In this document: piece after piece, positions 7,798-56,698 of the stretch
Layout: each line of letters opens with the position of its first letter
Numbering within the stretch: position 1 is the stretch's first letter
The notes under the pieces: generated by a model
What the model saw: the letters and a program-made list of their open reading frames with translations, nothing else
Told to the model about the DNA's origin: nothing
Database searches by the model: none
Source of the DNA: Candidatus Magasanikbacteria bacterium CG10_big_fil_rev_8_21_14_0_10_36_32
GTDB lineage: Bacteria > Patescibacteriota > Patescibacteriia > Magasanikbacterales > GWA2-37-8
Direction: 5' to 3'
DNA: 64,000 nt
NCBI GenBank assembly: GCA_002778465.1
Contig: PFBV01000003.1
Coordinates: forward strand, 87,736 to 151,735
Program-made: the position numbers and the translations under genes

Positions 7798-7880
7798 GCG
7801 GACGTGGCGGAACTTGGTATACGCGTACGTCTCAGAAGCGTATGGAGCAATCCTTGAGGGTTCAAGTCCCTCCGTCCGCA
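7798..7880 (+). tRNA. tRNA-Leu (anticodon CAG) with a long variable arm.
   Basis: Acceptor stem gcggacg/cgtccgc, anticodon loop ctCAGaa, long variable arm, T-arm gaggg-ttcaagt-ccctc, discriminator A. 83 nt in total. Confidence 0.8.
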
Positions 7881-10030: not shown

Positions 10031-10060
10031 ATACCCTCGCAAAAGCGAGGGTATTTTTTA
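10031..10060. terminator. Bidirectional rho-independent terminator (for pspC on the + strand and rnpB on the - strand).
   Basis: ataccctcgc-aaaa-gcgagggtat hairpin flanked by T-runs on both strands. Confidence 0.7.
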
Positions 10061-10061
10061 T

Positions 10062-10434
10062 TCATAGCTATAAGCCGAATTCTGTTCCCCCCGAAAGGGT
10101 GATAATCATTTCTCTAGTTGCATCATTACTGACACAATCATCAGCGAGCGAACTTTTTATCCCGACGTGAAGTCGGGACTCTGCTCTTGCACGCGAGTAA
10201 GGATTTTGCCGTTTCACCTTCAATCTTCTTTTCCCCCGATCAAAGTTAAGCTGTTATTCCTGATTAAACAAGAACATGGGATTTAGCTTTCCTTAGCCTT
10301 TCGGCTTTGGACGTTTCTGTTCGCACCTCTTGGATCGCTCCAGACGGGCGTTACCCGCTACTTTTGCCACAAATGAGCGGCTGCGTGTTCGGACTTTCCT
10401 CCCTAATAAATTAGGACGATTATCCACTATGAAC
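10062..10434 (-). ncRNA. rnpB: RNase P RNA (bacterial type A-like).
   Basis: The minus-strand read contains GGAGGAAAGTCCGAACAC (P4 5' strand) ... GGTAACGCCCG ... ACAGAAACG ... ACAGAATTCGGCTTATAGC (P4 3' strand ACAGAAnnCGGCTTA). The P1 helix pairs gttcatag with ctatgaa. A perfect promoter places the TSS at about 10434. Confidence 0.85.
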
Positions 10435-10440
10435 AGGTCT

Positions 10441-38866: not shown

Positions 38867-38940
38867 GTCAGGGTAGCTCAGCTGGTTAGAGCACTGGATT
38901 CATAACCCGGAGGTCGGGAGTTCAAGTCTCCCCCCTGACA
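38867..38940 (+). tRNA. tRNA-Met (anticodon CAU; it could alternatively be a lysidine-modified tRNA-Ile2).
   Basis: Acceptor gtcaggg/ccctgac, D-arm gctc-agctggtta-gagc, anticodon loop ttCATaa, T-arm gggag-ttcaagt-ctccc. It ends 2 nt before the tsaD ATG. Confidence 0.8.
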
Positions 38941-52952: not shown

Positions 52953-52957
52953 AAAAT

Positions 52958-53376
52958 ATGAATTATAAAAATATATCCGGCTGGCTTTTATCAGGAATTG
53001 CCACGAATCTTCTTTTGAAGAAATTAAAAAATTTTTAGGCCGAATTAAACAATCCAATTTATCAGGAATAAATACCGAAGAAGCAATACCGACTTTCAAA
53101 GTTGATGAACAAACATGGAACTCTCCCGCTCACTGGTATGTCTCTACTATTGCCCATGATACTTTTCATTCCTACTTTTATCACGATTATAAAAGAAAAA
53201 ATAAAGGCAAAGTGATACCAAAAAATATATGGATCGGCGCAGAACCGGAAAAAAATGTTTAAAATTTCAACTTCAAATTTTAAAAGAAATAGATGGCGAC
53301 ATCAAAGATATAAAACATGTGGAAGAATTAATAAAAAATCCGACTTATCAAAATATTCAAAATAGAAACTGGTAAA
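52958..53376 (+). pseudogene. Frameshifted remnant of a ~140-aa gene (three consecutive reading frames give a continuous protein-like translation).
   Basis: MNYKNISGWLLSGIATNLLLKKLKNF* continues in the +1 frame as LGRIKQSNLSGINTEEAIPTFKVDEQTWNSPAHWYVSTIAHDTFHSYFYHDYKRKNKGKVIPKNIWIGAEPEKNV*, then shifts again to KFQLQILKEIDGDIKDIKHVEELIKNPTYQNIQNRNW*. Both shifts occur at A/T homopolymer runs. There is no intact ORF of at least 60 aa. Confidence 0.4.
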
Positions 53377-53379
53377 AAA

Positions 53380-53412
53380 TAAAAGCCCCGCCAATGCGGG
53401 GCGTTATTTTAT
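53380..53412. terminator. Bidirectional terminator.
   Basis: aaaagccccgccaatgcggggcgttatttt. Confidence 0.6.
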
Positions 53413-53420
53413 ATAAAGAG

Positions 53421-53726
53421 CTAAAAAATATCTATCGGTTGACCGCCAAACGTTGCTTTCAAATAGCAATTTTTGCGAGTGTCAAAAATGAATTCACCCT
53501 GTTCAATTTGAATGGTAAGGGTAGTACCTCTTTTAACAATACTCTCAATAGGCATACTCACTAAATCATCAGACAATCCCATATTAATCCGATAACTGAA
53601 CAAGTCAGGATTTTTTTCATTGGAACAATAAATAACGAAATAAATCGCCGAATTAATCATACCGAAATATACTACTTTTCGACCTTCTGGTAAACCATCA
53701 ACACTCGGCTTTTCGACGACTTTCAT
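53421..53726 (-). CDS. Hypothetical small protein (101 aa).
   Basis: ORF with plausible coding character. No recognisable motif. Confidence 0.35.
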   Translation of the reverse strand: MKVVEKPSVDGLPEGRKVVYFGMINSAIYFVIYCSNEKNPDLFSYRINMGLSDDLVSMPIESIVKRGTTLTIQIEQGEFIFDTRKNCYLKATFGGQPIDIF

Positions 53727-53926
53727 TTTTTACTCCTTTGATTTGTTAAAAAACATTTCATTTTTTTAAACACGATAAAATAATACAATTTTATTTTAAA
53801 CTTGTCAACATAACAAAAAAACACAAAAAAATAATTCAATCAAATTCCTTTGACTAAAACGTCAAAATATGTCATTCTATAAAAAGTACTTTTAAAAAAC
53901 ATAACCTAAATAAAAAGGAGTAAAAA

Positions 53927-54427
53927 ATGCTACGCTTGGTTGGACAAATCAATACCACTCATATCACCGGATTACATTCTATGGTTTGGGGTAATTTTGA
54001 TAAATTGACCGGCAATGTATCTGGACTACGGGGCAATGTTTCCAATATTTGGGGACGGATTCATCCGGAAATTGAAGGCTTTGTTAGTAATATTTTTGGA
54101 AATATTACCGGTTTATCTGGGATAATTTCCGGAATAAACGGCAACATTAATAATATATCAGGCAAAGTCGGCGGTTTATACGGTTGTATCACTGCACTCT
54201 GCGGAGACGTCAGCCGGATTCGTGGCACCATTCACCCTTCCCTCTGCGGAGACGTCAGCCGAATGCGAGGTGACATTTCCGGATTGCGCGGACATATTTT
54301 TCTACTCCATGGAACTGCCAGCGGCATTGAAGGTGATTGTACCGGACAAAAAGGCAACATTGAAGAAATCATAACCAAAGCCGCATTGGCTCGTATCGCT
54401 GAAATCCGTAAACCCTTTGACGCTTAA
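53927..54427 (+). CDS. Heptapeptide-repeat protein (166 aa) with about 18 tandem G-x-[IV]-[ST]-x-[ILM]-x units.
   Basis: Good SD (aaaaggag) 8 nt upstream. The repeats read GNVSGLR GNVSNIW GRIHPEIE GFVSNIF GNITGLS GIISGIN GNINNIS GKVGGLY GCITALC GDVSRIR GTIHPSLC GDVSRMR GDISGLR GHIFLLH GTASGIE GDCTGQK. The DNA-level near-repeat ctgcggagacgtcagccg appears at 54198 and 54243. Terminator 54440-54475. Confidence 0.6.
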   Translation: MLRLVGQINTTHITGLHSMVWGNFDKLTGNVSGLRGNVSNIWGRIHPEIEGFVSNIFGNITGLSGIISGINGNINNISGKVGGLYGCITALCGDVSRIRGTIHPSLCGDVSRMRGDISGLRGHIFLLHGTASGIEGDCTGQKGNIEEIITKAALARIAEIRKPFDA

Positions 54428-54484
54428 ACGTTCTTTAAAACAAATCCCTCCGACACAATGTCGGAGGGATTTTTAATGACTTTA

Positions 54485-54811
54485 TCATTTTTTTATTTTT
54501 TTCGATCCAAATATTTTATCAAACACCCCAACCTTTCTTACTGTTCCTTTTTCATTTTTTAAATAAACAATTCCTTCCTGTTTATCTATTTTAGTCACTT
54601 GATAAATAAACACTCTTAAATCATCGCCAATTTTTACCCTATAAACCATTTTCGGTTTTAACCCTGATAATTTAATCCTGTCGTTTATTTTTAATCTTTT
54701 TTCATAAGCAATATCCACTAAACCTTCACCGACTTTACTAAAAGCCCCCGCTCGGCGTTCTTGCCAAGAACTGTCACGGCTTGCCGGACGGCTATATTTT
54801 TTTACTGCCAT
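54485..54811 (-). CDS. Hypothetical small basic protein (108 aa).
   Basis: ORF MAVKKYSRPASRDSSWQERRAG...; Lys-rich, with no recognisable domain. Confidence 0.35.
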   Translation of the reverse strand: MAVKKYSRPASRDSSWQERRAGAFSKVGEGLVDIAYEKRLKINDRIKLSGLKPKMVYRVKIGDDLRVFIYQVTKIDKQEGIVYLKNEKGTVRKVGVFDKIFGSKKIKK

Positions 54812-54829
54812 AAAATAAAAATTAATTAA

Positions 54830-56698
54830 TTAACCTAAAATTTCATAACGTTCTCCACCTGGTGAAATTTGTTCGGCAATTTTAACCAAATCCTCCAAAA
54901 TTGCATGGGCTAATTTATCACCTTCTTTTTTAATTTGTTCATATTTTTCCTGACTAATCGGTAATCCCACCTGTCCGGTCGGCAAACCAACAGCGGCATA
55001 AAATTTTATTTTTGGTTCCGTTCCGGACGGACGAGCAACCACTCTAATCATCTTTTCTGGATTCAACCAAAATACCAAAGCATTATCAGGAAAACCACTA
55101 TATTCTCCAACTACTTCGCCAGTCCGTGGATCAAGGGTTTTTTTGTTCAACTGATCAAAAACCGATTCCACTTTTAAACCATTTATTTCTACTGGTAATT
55201 TTTCACGCAACTTTTTCATTATTAAAGACATTTTATCCATTCCATCCATTCCACGATAAAAAATTGATTGAACCAATTCGCGATAATATCCATATTCTTT
55301 TTTAATTTCTTCCAATTGTTCAAAAAGCGTTCGGCCCTGCTGTTTTAAAAGAGCGGCATATTCACAAATTAATAAACTCGAGGCAGCGCCATCTTTATCG
55401 CGAGCATAATCACCATAAAGATAACCATGACTTTCTTCTCCGCCAAATAAAAACTTTTTTTCAGGCGGAATATTATCAATCGCATCCGCAATATATTTAC
55501 AACCAACCGGTAAATCACCAATTACTTCTACTCCATTATCTTGAGCTATCTTTGTCAACAAATCAGTGGTAACCGCGGTTTTAATTAAAACATAATTATT
55601 ATCTAATTTACCTTGTTTTTTTAATTCTTTAGTAATGTAATCAAATAAAAGCGCAGCAATCTGATTTCCATTTAAAAAAACATACTCGTCACCAGTATAC
55701 GATCGACGGCTAACTACACCAATTCTATCAGCATCCGGATCAGCAGCCACCACCAAATCAGCTTTTATTTTTTTTGCCTGTGCTGTGGCTAAATCCAAAG
55801 AAATTGGCACTTCTGGATTAGGAATTCTTTTGGCAACATTGCTAAAATTGGGATCAAAAGACATTTGTTCTTCAACTTCATGAATTTTAGTGAAACCAAC
55901 ATGCTTTAATACCGGCAAAAATGAAGTGCTGGCACAGCCATGCAACGGAGTAAAAACAATATCCACATCGCGATAATTTCCTAAAGATAAACTTCCAACA
56001 GTTTCAGCATAAGCACGATCAGTAACATCATCCAATAAAATAATTTTTCCATCTTTTATCGCTTGATCAAAATCACATTTTTTAACTTCCGTCACCCGCA
56101 TTACTTTTTGAATTATATTAACATCATGCGGTGGTACGACTTGTCCTCCATTTTCCCAATAAACTTTGATACCGTTATCTTCTGGCGGATTATGACTGGC
56201 ACTAATCATCACGCCTCCAGCCGCTTTTTTATAACGAATAGTGAAGGAAAGCTGAGGAGTAGACCGAATACCTTTAAAAAAATAAACGGTTAAACCGTTA
56301 GCGGCAAATATTTCAGCCGCATATTTAGCAAACAACTCGGAATTATTACGGATATCATAAGTAATAACTACCCCCCTCTTCTTAACATCTTCACTGCCAA
56401 AAGTTTCAATTAAATAATCAGAAAAACCTTGAGAGGATTCGGCGATAGTTCTAGTATTCATCCGATTTGATCCGGCACCCATTTTCCCGCGACGTCCACC
56501 GGTGCCAAAAGGCATAACTTTATAAAAAGCATCATTAAGTTCAGAAATATTTTCATCATTTATTAATTTTTCTATTTCATTAAAAAAATCAGCATATTCC
56601 GGTTCGGTCAGCCATTTTTTTATATTTTCAAAAGCACTATCCACTAATCCATTTATTTTTAAAATTTCAAGATTGTTTAATATGTCATTTTTTACCAT
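54830..56698 (-). CDS. Phosphoglucomutase/phosphomannomutase family protein (alpha-D-phosphohexomutase).
   Basis: Active-site Ser loop ISASHNPPEDNGIKV, metal-binding DPDADR, and the sugar-binding GEESHG region. Confidence 0.85.
   Translation of the reverse strand: MVKNDILNNLEILKINGLVDSAFENIKKWLTEPEYADFFNEIEKLINDENISELNDAFYKVMPFGTGGRRGKMGAGSNRMNTRTIAESSQGFSDYLIETFGSEDVKKRGVVITYDIRNNSELFAKYAAEIFAANGLTVYFFKGIRSTPQLSFTIRYKKAAGGVMISASHNPPEDNGIKVYWENGGQVVPPHDVNIIQKVMRVTEVKKCDFDQAIKDGKIILLDDVTDRAYAETVGSLSLGNYRDVDIVFTPLHGCASTSFLPVLKHVGFTKIHEVEEQMSFDPNFSNVAKRIPNPEVPISLDLATAQAKKIKADLVVAADPDADRIGVVSRRSYTGDEYVFLNGNQIAALLFDYITKELKKQGKLDNNYVLIKTAVTTDLLTKIAQDNGVEVIGDLPVGCKYIADAIDNIPPEKKFLFGGEESHGYLYGDYARDKDGAASSLLICEYAALLKQQGRTLFEQLEEIKKEYGYYRELVQSIFYRGMDGMDKMSLIMKKLREKLPVEINGLKVESVFDQLNKKTLDPRTGEVVGEYSGFPDNALVFWLNPEKMIRVVARPSGTEPKIKFYAAVGLPTGQVGLPISQEKYEQIKKEGDKLAHAILEDLVKIAEQISPGGERYEILG

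Follow-up and report, generated by a model that had tools for sequence, protein, structure and literature searches.

What kind of protein is made when a gene repeats, unit after unit, a seven-residue motif that begins with glycine? This question is raised by an open reading frame (ORF) at positions 53927-54427 (+ strand) of a 64,000-nucleotide stretch of DNA from a Candidatus Magasanikbacteria (Patescibacteria/CPR) genome, the whole stretch being referred to here as the window. Short-period repeat folds are few (pentapeptide, hexapeptide, RTX, collagen and coiled coil), and each of those known has opened a field, be it DNA mimicry, acyltransferases or protein design. An earlier note on this DNA had described the product of the ORF as a novel protein of about 18 tandem Gly-initiated heptapeptides and had proposed a regular solenoid or beta-roll. 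In the current study, the gene, its repeat array and its relatives were analysed computationally so as to establish what the protein is, how it may fold and what it may do.

An intact gene with putative expression signals

The ORF starts with ATG and, with the stop codon counted in, encodes a protein of 166 aa according to the ORF list. A Shine-Dalgarno-like AGGAG, read from the sequence at 53916-53920 (+ strand), lies 6 nt 5′ of the ATG, and an inverted repeat at 54442-54477, beginning 15 nt past the stop codon, forms a perfect 14-bp hairpin followed by a U-run. The RNA fold of this hairpin (−23.9 kcal/mol, z = −6.98) was not equalled in stability by any of 200 shuffles, and the element looks like an intrinsic terminator common to the ORF and to a convergent gene encoding a 108-aa protein. 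A crude test for signal peptides and transmembrane helices revealed neither in the 166-aa protein, as its N-terminus is not hydrophobic and its highest Kyte-Doolittle 19-residue mean is 1.28; the earlier reading of an ORF with a Shine-Dalgarno sequence and without a signal peptide is thereby confirmed.

The identical 166-aa protein recurs on 12 contigs drawn from several metagenomes, and at five fetched loci encoding the exact protein the DNA was identical in four and carried a single synonymous change in the fifth; these contigs are one strain. The gene has a GC content of 44.5% (GC3 39%) versus 35.3% for the window, an excess for which its Gly, Arg and Ser codons account, and the GC content was not taken as evidence of horizontal transfer. 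The protein is basic, with a pI of 8.8. The signals described above, together with a protein-level periodicity written in varied codons and the existence of homologues, substantiate the earlier view that this is a genuine coding gene, and by these sequence criteria the ORF is shown to be an intact protein-coding gene of the Candidatus Magasanikbacteria genome. Its predicted product is cytoplasmic and is shown, at the level of primary structure, to consist of three parts, i.e. an N-terminal cap with a conserved His, approximately 17 repeat units and a putative C-terminal helix.

Architecture of the repeat array

Based on the codon table, shuffles and the family profile, the array comprises 17 units (15 heptads and 2 octads) at residues 22-142 (53990-54352, + strand), with the consensus G-[DN]-[VI]-[ST]-x-[IL]-x. 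Units 1-9 are GNFDKLT, GNVSGLR, GNVSNIW, GRIHPEIE, GFVSNIF, GNITGLS, GIISGIN, GNINNIS and GKVGGLY, and units 10-17 are GCITALC, GDVSRIR, GTIHPSLC, GDVSRMR, GDISGLR, GHIFLLH, GTASGIE and GDCTGQK, the heptads that had been listed previously being read exactly as they were given. When parsed strictly, the protein gave an unbroken run of 16 units, each 7 or 8 residues long and the run flanked on both sides by a degenerate unit, compared to a longest unit chain of 3 (mean 0.86) in 5000 shuffles of the protein. The tandem repeat is therefore real. The two 8-residue variants are equally real: in the codon table, GRIHPEIE occupies 54053-54076 and GTIHPSLC 54224-54247 (both + strand), each with Pro at position 5. 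G, S, N and D are abundant in the repeat region, which consists of 20.7% Gly, with A, E, L, M, Q, K and R together accounting for only 21% and with 2 Pro residues. No super-period of two or three units was detectable when unit similarity at lags 1-7, aromatic recurrence and octad spacing were assessed, and only a faint signal was seen at lag 2.

The array is preceded by an N-terminal lead or cap (residues 6-21, GQINTTHIT-GLHSMVW; 53942-53989, + strand), which was delimited by a motif survey anchored on G.H. Of the sequences that carry four or more G[DNY][VIAC][ST] motifs, 277 in all, 61 have the cap motif G-x-H-x-x-[IVL]-x-G directly before the array; among them is the 166-aa protein, whose cap (..THIT-GLHSMVW-GNF..) aligns with those of the 60 other members. 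The longer, hairpin-like lead [YWF][HY][YF]x[DN]G, usual in viral members, is absent from the 166-aa protein. The C-terminal tail (residues 143-166, GNIEEIITKAALARIAEIRKPFDA; 54353-54424, + strand) is helical in both AlphaFold2 runs described below. It takes the place of the canonical viral C-cap GN[LIV]DxC[EG][IL]TxE[ED]RxxG[IV]xIx[DE]LI, which is absent, and resembles the alternative 'G-x-V-E-E-L-V...' helical tails of relatives P0014, P0088, P0148 and P0078.

At the DNA level the array tells a different story. Tandem Repeats Finder saw no DNA repeat in the gene, heptads compared in pairs share on average 45% of their nucleotides, each of the four Gly codons occurs, and the Ser at position 4 is encoded by TCN as well as AGY; the periodicity is consequently maintained at the protein rather than the DNA level. 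A repeat search and direct comparison identified a local direct duplication of 45 nt (15 codons, i.e. a heptad plus an octad or heptad) at 54192-54277 (+ strand), with an exact core of 20 nt (54197-54216 being identical to 54242-54261) and 80% identity over 41 nt. It had been called a near-exact 45-bp duplication, a description that does not survive, as over the copies as then placed only 32 of 45 positions are identical. The inferred recent expansion of the repeat thus shrinks to, at most, one 15-codon unit: this single local duplication is already diverged, and the other units of the array are old at the DNA level.

A large family of glycine-heptad proteins

A phmmer search of 1.84 billion representatives with the 166-aa protein returned 818 matches at E ≤ 1e-3, of which 106 reached E ≤ 1e-10 (best 1.9e-52), and a profile search returned 140 proteins at E ≤ 1e-10, the E-values of both kinds of search being inflated by periodic composition. 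At least nine units are present in 122 of 150 representatives among the matches listed, or in 124 of 152 when the earlier matches P0001 and P0002 are included. A profile of 1514 heptads from the family reads Gly at position 1, D (54%) or N (18%) at position 2, V (55%) or I (16%) at position 3, S (45%) or T (32%) at position 4, G (29%) or N (19%) at position 5, L (43%), I (36%) or V (15%) at position 6 and a variable position 7; the first Gly is invariant, and the figure for position 5 means that 29% of units carry a second one. Pro is the commonest residue at position 5 of the octads (54 of 165 family octads, 33%).

Members are abundant on phage contigs, where they lie in early or replication regions, often as several paralogues, and they are also found in CPR bacteria and DPANN archaea; the array furthermore occurs as a module fused to other domains. 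The phage contigs concerned carry primase, helicase, SSB, RecT-like and tail-fibre genes, and the neighbours of viral family genes are replication and recombination genes, but no individual neighbour is conserved in more than four loci around 84 viral family genes (81 distinct ORFs). A scan of IMG/VR with a strict, degenerate two-heptad DNA pattern matched 63 stretches, with up to four paralogues per locus. The viral members are small and acidic (median pI 5.05). Between closely related and otherwise identical phage genes, the difference is one of exactly 5 or 8 heptads with the frame preserved; the search for homologues and for variable copy number that the earlier note had advised thus yielded relatives in which the number does vary, always by whole heptads.

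Scans of Pfam, NCBIfam, PHROG and PADLOC with the 166-aa protein, its neighbours, 20 relatives and an idealised consensus produced no above-threshold match to the glycine-heptad proteins, PADLOC giving none for the family. What they returned were sub-threshold periodic matches only, to coiled-coil families, tape-measure proteins, TigB, SlaB and LbR_Ice_bind. All source annotations of family members that were seen read 'hypothetical protein', and a literature search with motif strings and with heptapeptide, solenoid and phage terms found no paper describing the family. The expression 'heptapeptide repeat' is also cited for PlyA and PlyB of Rhizobium, secreted exopolysaccharide glycanases and thus a context unrelated to the present one. 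The earlier placement of the repeat outside the known repeat classes is upheld by the lack of any curated library model above threshold, whereas novelty in the sense of uniqueness is contradicted by the 818 phmmer matches and the 63 viral stretches. Judged by its unit grammar, its sequence similarity to other members and its N-terminal cap, the 166-aa protein belongs to a large, widespread, unnamed and uncurated glycine-heptad repeat family. Such a repeat, with hundreds to thousands of members and conserved caps, and with no curated model, structure or paper found, would be a noteworthy addition to the short list of folds given above.

Genomic setting

On its two sides, the patch that holds the gene is bounded by htpX and a gene for a phospho-sugar mutase. 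The region 52959-53375 yields a readable protein only by switching frame, and the neighbouring proteins of 101 and 108 aa are without a family match in Pfam, NCBIfam, PHROG or PADLOC, so that the earlier description of an accessory patch (52953-54830) with a frameshifted remnant and two orphan small ORFs holds. Neither a scan of GTDB genomes nor one of JGI metagenomes found a syntenic orthologue: the former returned one non-syntenic relative of 98 aa in another Patescibacteria MAG, and the latter returned no matches. We take the Magasanikbacteria gene to be a probable accessory gene, acquired in all likelihood by horizontal transfer, within a patch that would be variable.

Fold prediction and the weighing of alternatives

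The proposal of a regular solenoid or beta-roll is plausible, but the two AlphaFold2 runs conflict and the best solved matches are trimeric coiled coils. Run without an alignment, AlphaFold2 folded residues 2-165 into one unbroken helix (pLDDT 85); over the five models pLDDT ranged from 47 to 85, with 67 or less in three of them. With a 37-sequence alignment, it produced 5-residue strands every 7 residues (pLDDT 55), with residues 114-144 below pLDDT 50 and a helix at residues 145-165 at about 80. The structure check that the earlier note had called for therefore returned a helix or strands depending on the input. In Foldseek the alignment-based model resembles beta-helices without significance, as nothing was found in PDB or BFVD at E ≤ 0.001 and the best match was a predicted ectromelia-virus repeat protein (E = 0.09). 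The family profile, when compared to solved structures, best matched SlaB (8qox_B, 5.7e-9) and the tail needle gp26 (4lin, 8.8e-9), with further matches to cavin-1 (1.3e-6), reovirus sigma-1 and a grass beta-roll (3ult, 8.5e-3).

From the sequence grammar, namely an invariant Gly, 21% Gly overall, Pro-containing octads and capping motifs, we infer that a beta-solenoid-like rod is to be favoured over a coiled coil, and the conservation of caps at both termini, as is typical of solenoids, supports this preference, as do the second Gly at position 5 in 29% of units, the strands spaced 7 apart in the alignment-based model, the pentapeptide-like grammar of positions 1-5 and the N/D ladder documented for T4 gp5. 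The rod would be elongated, capped and of solenoid type, with one short strand and one tight turn supplied by each unit, and would be made of a single chain or of three intertwined chains. L6, G1 and V3 would face the core, S4 and the variable residue 5 would lie at the corner, and the extra Pro of the 8-residue variants would lengthen that corner. The number of units would set the length of the rod, to be altered by gain or loss of whole heptads, and the variable positions 5 and 7 would present a surface for binding of a partner.

The competing proposal is that of an alpha-helical, probably trimeric coiled-coil rod, which likens the heptads, read as x-N-[IV]-[ST]-x-L-x, to those of phage tail needles, fibres or S-layer stalks; the protein would be a stalk or spacer that brings about oligomerisation, and Gly would be tolerated because it falls on the exposed f position. 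We consider this the less likely of the two. In its favour, valine or isoleucine at position 3 and leucine or isoleucine at position 6 have the classic a/d spacing, the alignment-free helix and the top solved matches (8qox_B, 4lin, cavin-1 and reovirus sigma-1) point in the same direction, and GEIASLQ and GRVTTAE, two units of a solved stretch of gp26, keep the same register. Many relatives match Pfam LPP, DUF1664, Baculo_PEP_C and FlaC below threshold, in the distant matches P0037, P0120 and P0024 canonical coiled-coil heptads give way directly to G-heptads, gains or losses of any whole number of heptads (5 or 8) are accommodated, and a super-period of two or three units is undetectable. Composition argues against such a helix, as Gly makes up 20.7% of the repeat region but 3-7.5% of the matched coiled coils, and the mean helix-propensity cost of the region is well above theirs (0.62 versus 0.42-0.45 kcal/mol per residue in three matched solved coiled coils, on the Pace-Scholtz scale). 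Furthermore, G1, S/T4 and G/N5 are conserved at what would be the exposed f, b and c positions, where coiled coils constrain little; a third of octads carry Pro at position 5, and heptads alternate with octads in some relatives; conserved capping motifs are not a coiled-coil feature; three of the five single-sequence models have a pLDDT of 67 or less; and the helix vanishes once an alignment is added.

The capped solenoid has also to be set against readings in which there is no rod at all. The low confidence of the alignment-based model, particularly at residues 114-144, the labile copy number and the abundance of G, S, N and D are compatible with a largely disordered or low-complexity region that folds, if at all, upon partner binding and owes its periodicity to replication slippage and weak selection; this is improbable given the strong positional conservation among very divergent members (hydrophobics at 3 and 6, S/T at 4), the existence of conserved caps and the age of the units of the 166-aa protein at the DNA level, which rules out recent slippage. 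Far less probable still is a repeat-motif RiPP precursor of the TigB or TvgA type, with Ile/Val modified by a partner radical-SAM enzyme: NCBIfam NF047709 (RiPP_TigB) scored 20.8 bits with the 166-aa protein and up to 39.7 with P0114, but these scores are far under the cut-off of 70 and reflect a periodic G/I/V/S composition, genes for a radical-SAM enzyme, a peptidase or a transporter are missing beside the gene, both in the window and in all examined contexts of homologues, and capped proteins of 100-250 aa are atypical as RiPP precursors. That the ORF is no gene and merely runs by chance over a DNA repeat would fit with the missing syntenic orthologue and with the finding that no consensus sigma-70 promoter was detected upstream on the + strand. 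This reading is effectively refuted by the family evidence, with its hundreds of homologues, and it is further opposed by the varied codons that encode the periodicity, by the lack of a tandem repeat in the DNA, by the Shine-Dalgarno sequence and terminator and by the opposite strand, whose longest ORFs within the gene reach just 48-56 aa.

Possible role and significance

The family is concentrated in the early regions of phages and in CPR bacteria and DPANN archaea, whose genomes are reduced, a distribution suggestive of a part in the interaction of viruses, or of symbionts, with their hosts. Our best guess is that the glycine-heptad protein would act as a length-variable binding scaffold or decoy in the interplay of phage and host. 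Against this count the lack of a conserved neighbour and of a PADLOC match, the basic pI of the 166-aa protein compared to the acidic viral members, its missing viral C-cap and the failure to find a syntenic orthologue. A role for the 166-aa protein as a DNA mimic was not adopted, as the viral members are acidic but this protein is basic. Taken as a whole, the reading of a capped solenoid-type rod, acting as a phage-host binding scaffold or decoy and present as an accessory copy in Magasanikbacteria, is the one that we prefer, and we hold it tentatively, at somewhat short of an even chance. In its boldest form, the proposal would be that of a new short-period solenoid class, the 'heptapeptide repeat protein', a 7-residue counterpart to the beta-helices of pentapeptide and hexapeptide repeats, with its own caps and possibly an intertwined trimer, carried mainly by phages as multi-copy early genes that vary by whole heptads. 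Its rod, of adjustable length, would serve for binding or as a decoy where phage and host are in conflict, and the gene in Magasanikbacteria would be a copy that was captured and has diverged; this we offer as a conjecture that is less likely than not to hold. The repeat straddles the grammars of coiled coil and beta-solenoid, and since AlphaFold2 flips between the two depending on its input, a solved structure would be informative for both fold prediction and repeat-protein design.

Comparison with known repeat systems

The pentapeptide repeat proteins (PF00805 and relatives, Rfr fold; e.g. MfpA and Qnr) are built on [small]-[D/N]-[hydrophobic]-[S/T/R]-[G], a pattern to which the first five residues of the glycine heptad, G-[DN]-[VI]-[ST]-[G/N], conform. 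Both groups are small, cytoplasmic and variable in copy number, with the viral heptad members being acidic. The period is 5 in the one and 7 (or 8) in the other, two extra residues, [IL]-x, being added, and the pentapeptide HMMs (PF00805, PF13599 and PF13576) did not match the 166-aa protein even at E ≤ 10.

The left-handed beta-helix (LbH) and the grass beta-roll (PF21300; 3ult) likewise have repeats of short period in which an aliphatic residue occurs together with Gly and a small residue, and the ice-recrystallisation-inhibition roll of grass LpIRI is made of 7-residue half-turns. Their details differ: the hexapeptide model PF00132, with its 6-residue [LIV]-[GAED]-x2-[STAV]-x, gave no HMM match to the 166-aa protein, of period 7 or 8, and the grass consensus is xxNxVxG compared to GDVSxIx. 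PF21300 (LbR_Ice_bind) scored 16-23 bits with P0008, P0114 and P0147, below its cut-off of 30, the 166-aa protein not being among the listed matches, and nothing in the gene contexts of the family points to ice binding.

Trimeric coiled coils such as P22-type gp26 (4lin) and the archaeal S-layer stalk SlaB (8qox) share the heptad x-[N/D]-[IV]-[ST]-x-L-x in the same register, and those of phage tail needles and fibres share with the family its association with phages. The glycine-heptad family differs from them in its invariant Gly1, frequent Gly5, Pro-containing octads and helix-unfavourable composition, and its members are small, standalone, capped proteins of early regions rather than structural modules.

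The triple-stranded beta-helix of T4 gp5 (VxGxxxxx) is a virion spike domain with a period of 8, the order V-[ND]-G as opposed to G-[DN]-V, and no sequence match with the family. It is nevertheless like the glycine-heptad array in being phage-borne and in placing a conserved N/D beside the Gly of a short repeat. In gp5, the N/D near the Gly corner forms a surface hydrogen-bonded ladder, and the length of the rod is tunable through the number of repeats (PMC4576200).

The glycine-heptad gene

The 166-aa open reading frame at 53927..54427 (+) in the ORF list is a real gene, preceded by an AGGAG located 6 nt upstream of its ATG (53916-53920, +; identified by reading the sequence). The inverted-repeat search revealed a perfect 14-bp hairpin followed by a U-run 15 nt past the stop codon (54442-54472, no strand assigned), for which RNA folding returned -23.9 kcal/mol (z = -6.98), none of 200 shuffles being equally stable. 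Residues 22-142 of the encoded protein consist of 17 back-to-back Gly-initiated units, namely 15 heptads and two octads (GRIHPEIE and GTIHPSLC), exactly as listed in the earlier note, whose observation of a heptad-encoding frame is confirmed. A strict parser (G at position 1, hydrophobic residues at position 3 and the penultimate position, then G) chained 16 units in this protein, against a longest chain of 3 in 5000 shuffles of it. No hydrophobic N-terminus or transmembrane-like segment was observed (Kyte-Doolittle 19-residue mean maximum of 1.28), nor was a second glycine-heptad gene found elsewhere in the 64-kb window.

Tandem Repeats Finder reported no repeat within the gene, the heptad units share a mean nucleotide identity of 45%, position-1 Gly is encoded by GGC, GGA, GGT and GGG, and position-4 Ser by TCN as well as AGY codons. 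What keeps the periodicity is thus selection at the protein level and not recent slippage. The exception is a single duplication of 15 codons (one heptad plus one octad), already diverged, which retains a 20-nt exact core (54197-54216 = 54242-54261) and an identity of 32/45, or 80% across 41 nt. A 45-bp duplication had been reported previously and is indeed present, although its description as near-exact, and as a sign of recent expansion, was overstated.

Genomic context

Neighbouring genes are exact matches to PIT88412-PIT88418 (COU29_01325 to COU29_01350) of a Candidatus Magasanikbacteria MAG, and the position of the repeat gene among them suggests that it is COU29_01345. The identical protein recurs in several metagenomes, on 12 contigs in all; in four of five fetched loci the DNA is identical over the gene and 52953-54830, while the fifth spans the gene alone and carries one synonymous change. 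These loci represent one population and are uninformative on selection.

The interval that holds the gene is bounded by htpX and a phospho-sugar mutase gene. Just after htpX lies a frameshifted gene remnant (52959-53375, +), readable only by switching frame twice: MNYKNISGW..., then ...SFEEIKKFLGRIKQSNLSGINTEE...IWIGAEPEK, and finally ...LKFQLQILKEIDGDIKDIKHVEELIKNPTYQNIQNRNW, the second switch occurring at an A7 run (53249-53255). Four other contigs carry the remnant with identical DNA, so that a one-off assembly error does not account for it; its stitched 135-aa sequence matched no Pfam family. The MAG annotation lists two hypothetical proteins, one of 101 aa (COU29_01340; 53421-53726, -) encoded divergently from the repeat gene and one of 108 aa (COU29_01350; 54485-54811, -) encoded convergently with it, both of which are singletons in 90% clustering and matched no Pfam, NCBIfam, PHROG or PADLOC model. 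Between the remnant and the 101-aa gene, a GC-rich 7-bp hairpin with T-runs on either side (53385-53402) looks, from its sequence, like a bidirectional terminator. Elsewhere in the window, the Rfam scan located ordinary housekeeping RNAs: a bacterial class A RNase P RNA (10055-10435, -) and two tRNA genes (7798-7880, + and 38867-38940, +). The region looks, tentatively, like a variable patch, and the Magasanikbacteria copy like an accessory gene within it.

A family of glycine-heptad proteins

A phmmer search of the protein against 1.84 billion representatives yielded 818 matches at E<=1e-3, 106 at E<=1e-10 and three at E<=1e-30, so that it belongs to a large family and is not unique; the earlier note had called it novel. 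At least nine G-heptads were present in 122 of the 150 listed representatives among these matches (124 of 152 where P0001 and P0002, homologues from an earlier search, are included). The weak end of the list is inflated by ordinary coiled-coil heptads (e.g. P0037, P0120 and P0024), despite which the core family is unmistakable. Across 168 arrays, 1514 heptads gave the profile G / D54 N18 / V55 I16 / S45 T32 / G29 N19 / L43 I36 V15 / variable, with S, R, T, E, K, Q, Y and W found at position 7, and 165 octads gave G / x / I62 / S53 / P33 / x / L86 / x.

All family members encountered bear the source name 'hypothetical protein' except the 97-aa P0255, labelled 'ribosomal protein L21E' by JGI. 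None of the models in Pfam, NCBIfam, PHROGs or PADLOC picks up the family, in keeping with the earlier note's view of an unclassified repeat class, and full-text literature searches with motif strings returned nothing relevant. This is a sizeable family, undescribed in curated databases and the searchable literature, of short-period tandem-repeat rods, a kind of protein already known.

Distribution and possible function

When IMG/VR was scanned with a strict DNA pattern encoding two GDV[ST]xIxG units in a row, 63 stretches matched, and these loci provided 81 distinct ORFs, mostly of 76-260 aa and mostly acidic (median pI 5.05). The canonical viral protein comprises an N-terminal lead, [YWF][HY][YF]x[DN]Gx[KR][IV]xGxHxx[IL]xG, an array of 6-30 heptads and a C-terminal cap, GN[LIV]DxC[EG][IL]TxE[ED]RxxG[IV]xIx[DE]LI, both terminal motifs being strongly conserved. 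Surrounding genes encode primase, helicase, SSB, RecT-like, MazG-like and small unknown proteins, placing the viral genes in an early/replication module and not in a structural module. Paralogues are often adjacent, two to four in tandem (four in contig L064, three each in L035 and L053). Some genes from related viral contigs are the same except for array length, which differs by exactly eight heptads (151 vs 207 aa) or exactly five (103 vs 138 aa) between unchanged flanks; copy number, which the earlier note had proposed to check, thus varies in whole heptads and the frame is never broken, contrary to the refuting condition set in that note. Phage contigs with tandem paralogues or such differences include L035, L039 and L045 (IMG/VR), L064, L053 and L021.

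Beyond phages, the only relative found in GTDB species-representative genomes is a 98-aa ORF (locus L006, 7977-8273) of Patescibacteria MAG JBMOLN010000007.1, with a 'LINxENLxGDxSxIWGDA' lead, about seven heptads and an unrelated genomic context; another member (P0034) occurs in Micrarchaeaceae. Three proteins of about 460-480 aa (P0019, P0053 and P0066) carry a kinase-like domain (Pkinase 21-31 bits, just under the gathering score) followed by a C-terminal array, and P0017 (L013, 1837-3489) has an N-terminal array, a signal-peptide-like segment and a secretin (Secretin_N + Secretin), a fusion that could be read-through of two adjacent genes.

The Magasanikbacteria protein has a short-form N-cap (..THIT-GLHSMVW-GNF..), lacks the canonical viral C-cap, is basic (pI 8.8) and over its first half carries N in place of D at position 2; these traits mark it as diverged within the family. 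Its tail, GNIEEIITKAALARIAEIRK, predicted to be helical in both AlphaFold2 runs, is similar to the helical tails ('G-x-V-E-E-L-V') of P0014, P0088, P0148 and P0078.

No conserved neighbour was found around the viral genes, no PADLOC defence-system model matched, and no RiPP maturase was found in the window or in the homologue contexts examined. The proteins of the family would form capped rods of variable length, each unit exposing two or three variable positions on the surface. Given such rods, multi-copy early phage genes and copy-number variation among close relatives, the simplest reading, which we hold with low confidence, is that they may act as binding scaffolds or decoys in phage-host interaction.

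Predicted fold

Structure prediction depended on the input. Without an alignment, AlphaFold2 produced a single helix (residues 2-165, pLDDT 85.3, pTM 0.34), the pLDDT of the five models lying between 47 and 85; given an alignment of 37 repeat-segment sequences, it produced five-residue strands every seven residues (53-57, 60-64, 67-71, 74-78 and so on) and a C-terminal helix at a pLDDT of 55. In Foldseek, the look-alikes of the latter model included right-handed beta-helices and pentapeptide proteins, none at E<=0.001. Its best match was the predicted structure of a poxvirus protein, Ectromelia virus EVN041 (BFVD A0A075ILN4; TM 0.48, probability 1.00, E 0.09), possibly another short-period repeat protein, and the match may merely reflect how predictors handle short-period repeats. 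When the alignment profile was compared with PDB sequences, trimeric coiled coils scored best (SlaB 8qox_B, 5.7e-9; tail needle gp26 4lin, 8.8e-9; cavin-1, 1.3e-6), and a grass beta-roll (3ult) reached 8.5e-3. The solenoid suggested in the earlier note is plausible, no more: the two AlphaFold2 runs disagree, and the best PDB-sequence matches are coiled coils.

We regard it as an even call that the fold is solenoid-type, as a single chain or intertwined. A coiled coil is a distinctly less probable alternative. In its favour are the a/d pattern at heptad positions 3 and 6, the fact that arrays with any whole number of heptads are tolerated, the N-[IV]-[ST]-x-L grammar common to glycine heptads, gp26 and SlaB, and two of four gp26 heptads that place a Gly at the corresponding position; in a coiled coil, however, the conserved heptad positions would fall on the exposed f, b and c. 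Gly is invariant at position 1, with a second at position 5 in 29% of units, and accounts for 20.7% of the repeat region, where A, E, L, M, Q, K and R together reach only 21%. The mean helix-propensity cost (Pace-Scholtz scale) comes to 0.62 kcal/mol per residue, compared with 0.42-0.45 in the three matched solved coiled coils. Pro is the commonest residue at octad position 5, and octads alternate with heptads in some relatives (e.g. P0064 and P0100). Together with the exposure that a coiled coil would impose on conserved residues and with the conserved N- and C-caps, a solenoid hallmark, these features argue for a beta-solenoid-like structure. No super-period of two or three units was found in the array. 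Disorder is improbable, and some other fold takes up what little remains.

In the beta-solenoid-like structure, L6-x7-G1-D2-V3 would form a five-residue strand with L, G and V inward and D outward, and S4 and x5 would form a corner that octads lengthen by one Pro, an arrangement that explains every conserved position. Pentapeptide repeats have the grammar [small][DN][hydrophobic][STR][G], which heptad positions 1-5 would follow if the strand and corner are so placed. In the VxGxxxxx beta-helix of T4 gp5, a surface N/D ladder runs beside a Gly corner (PMC4576200).
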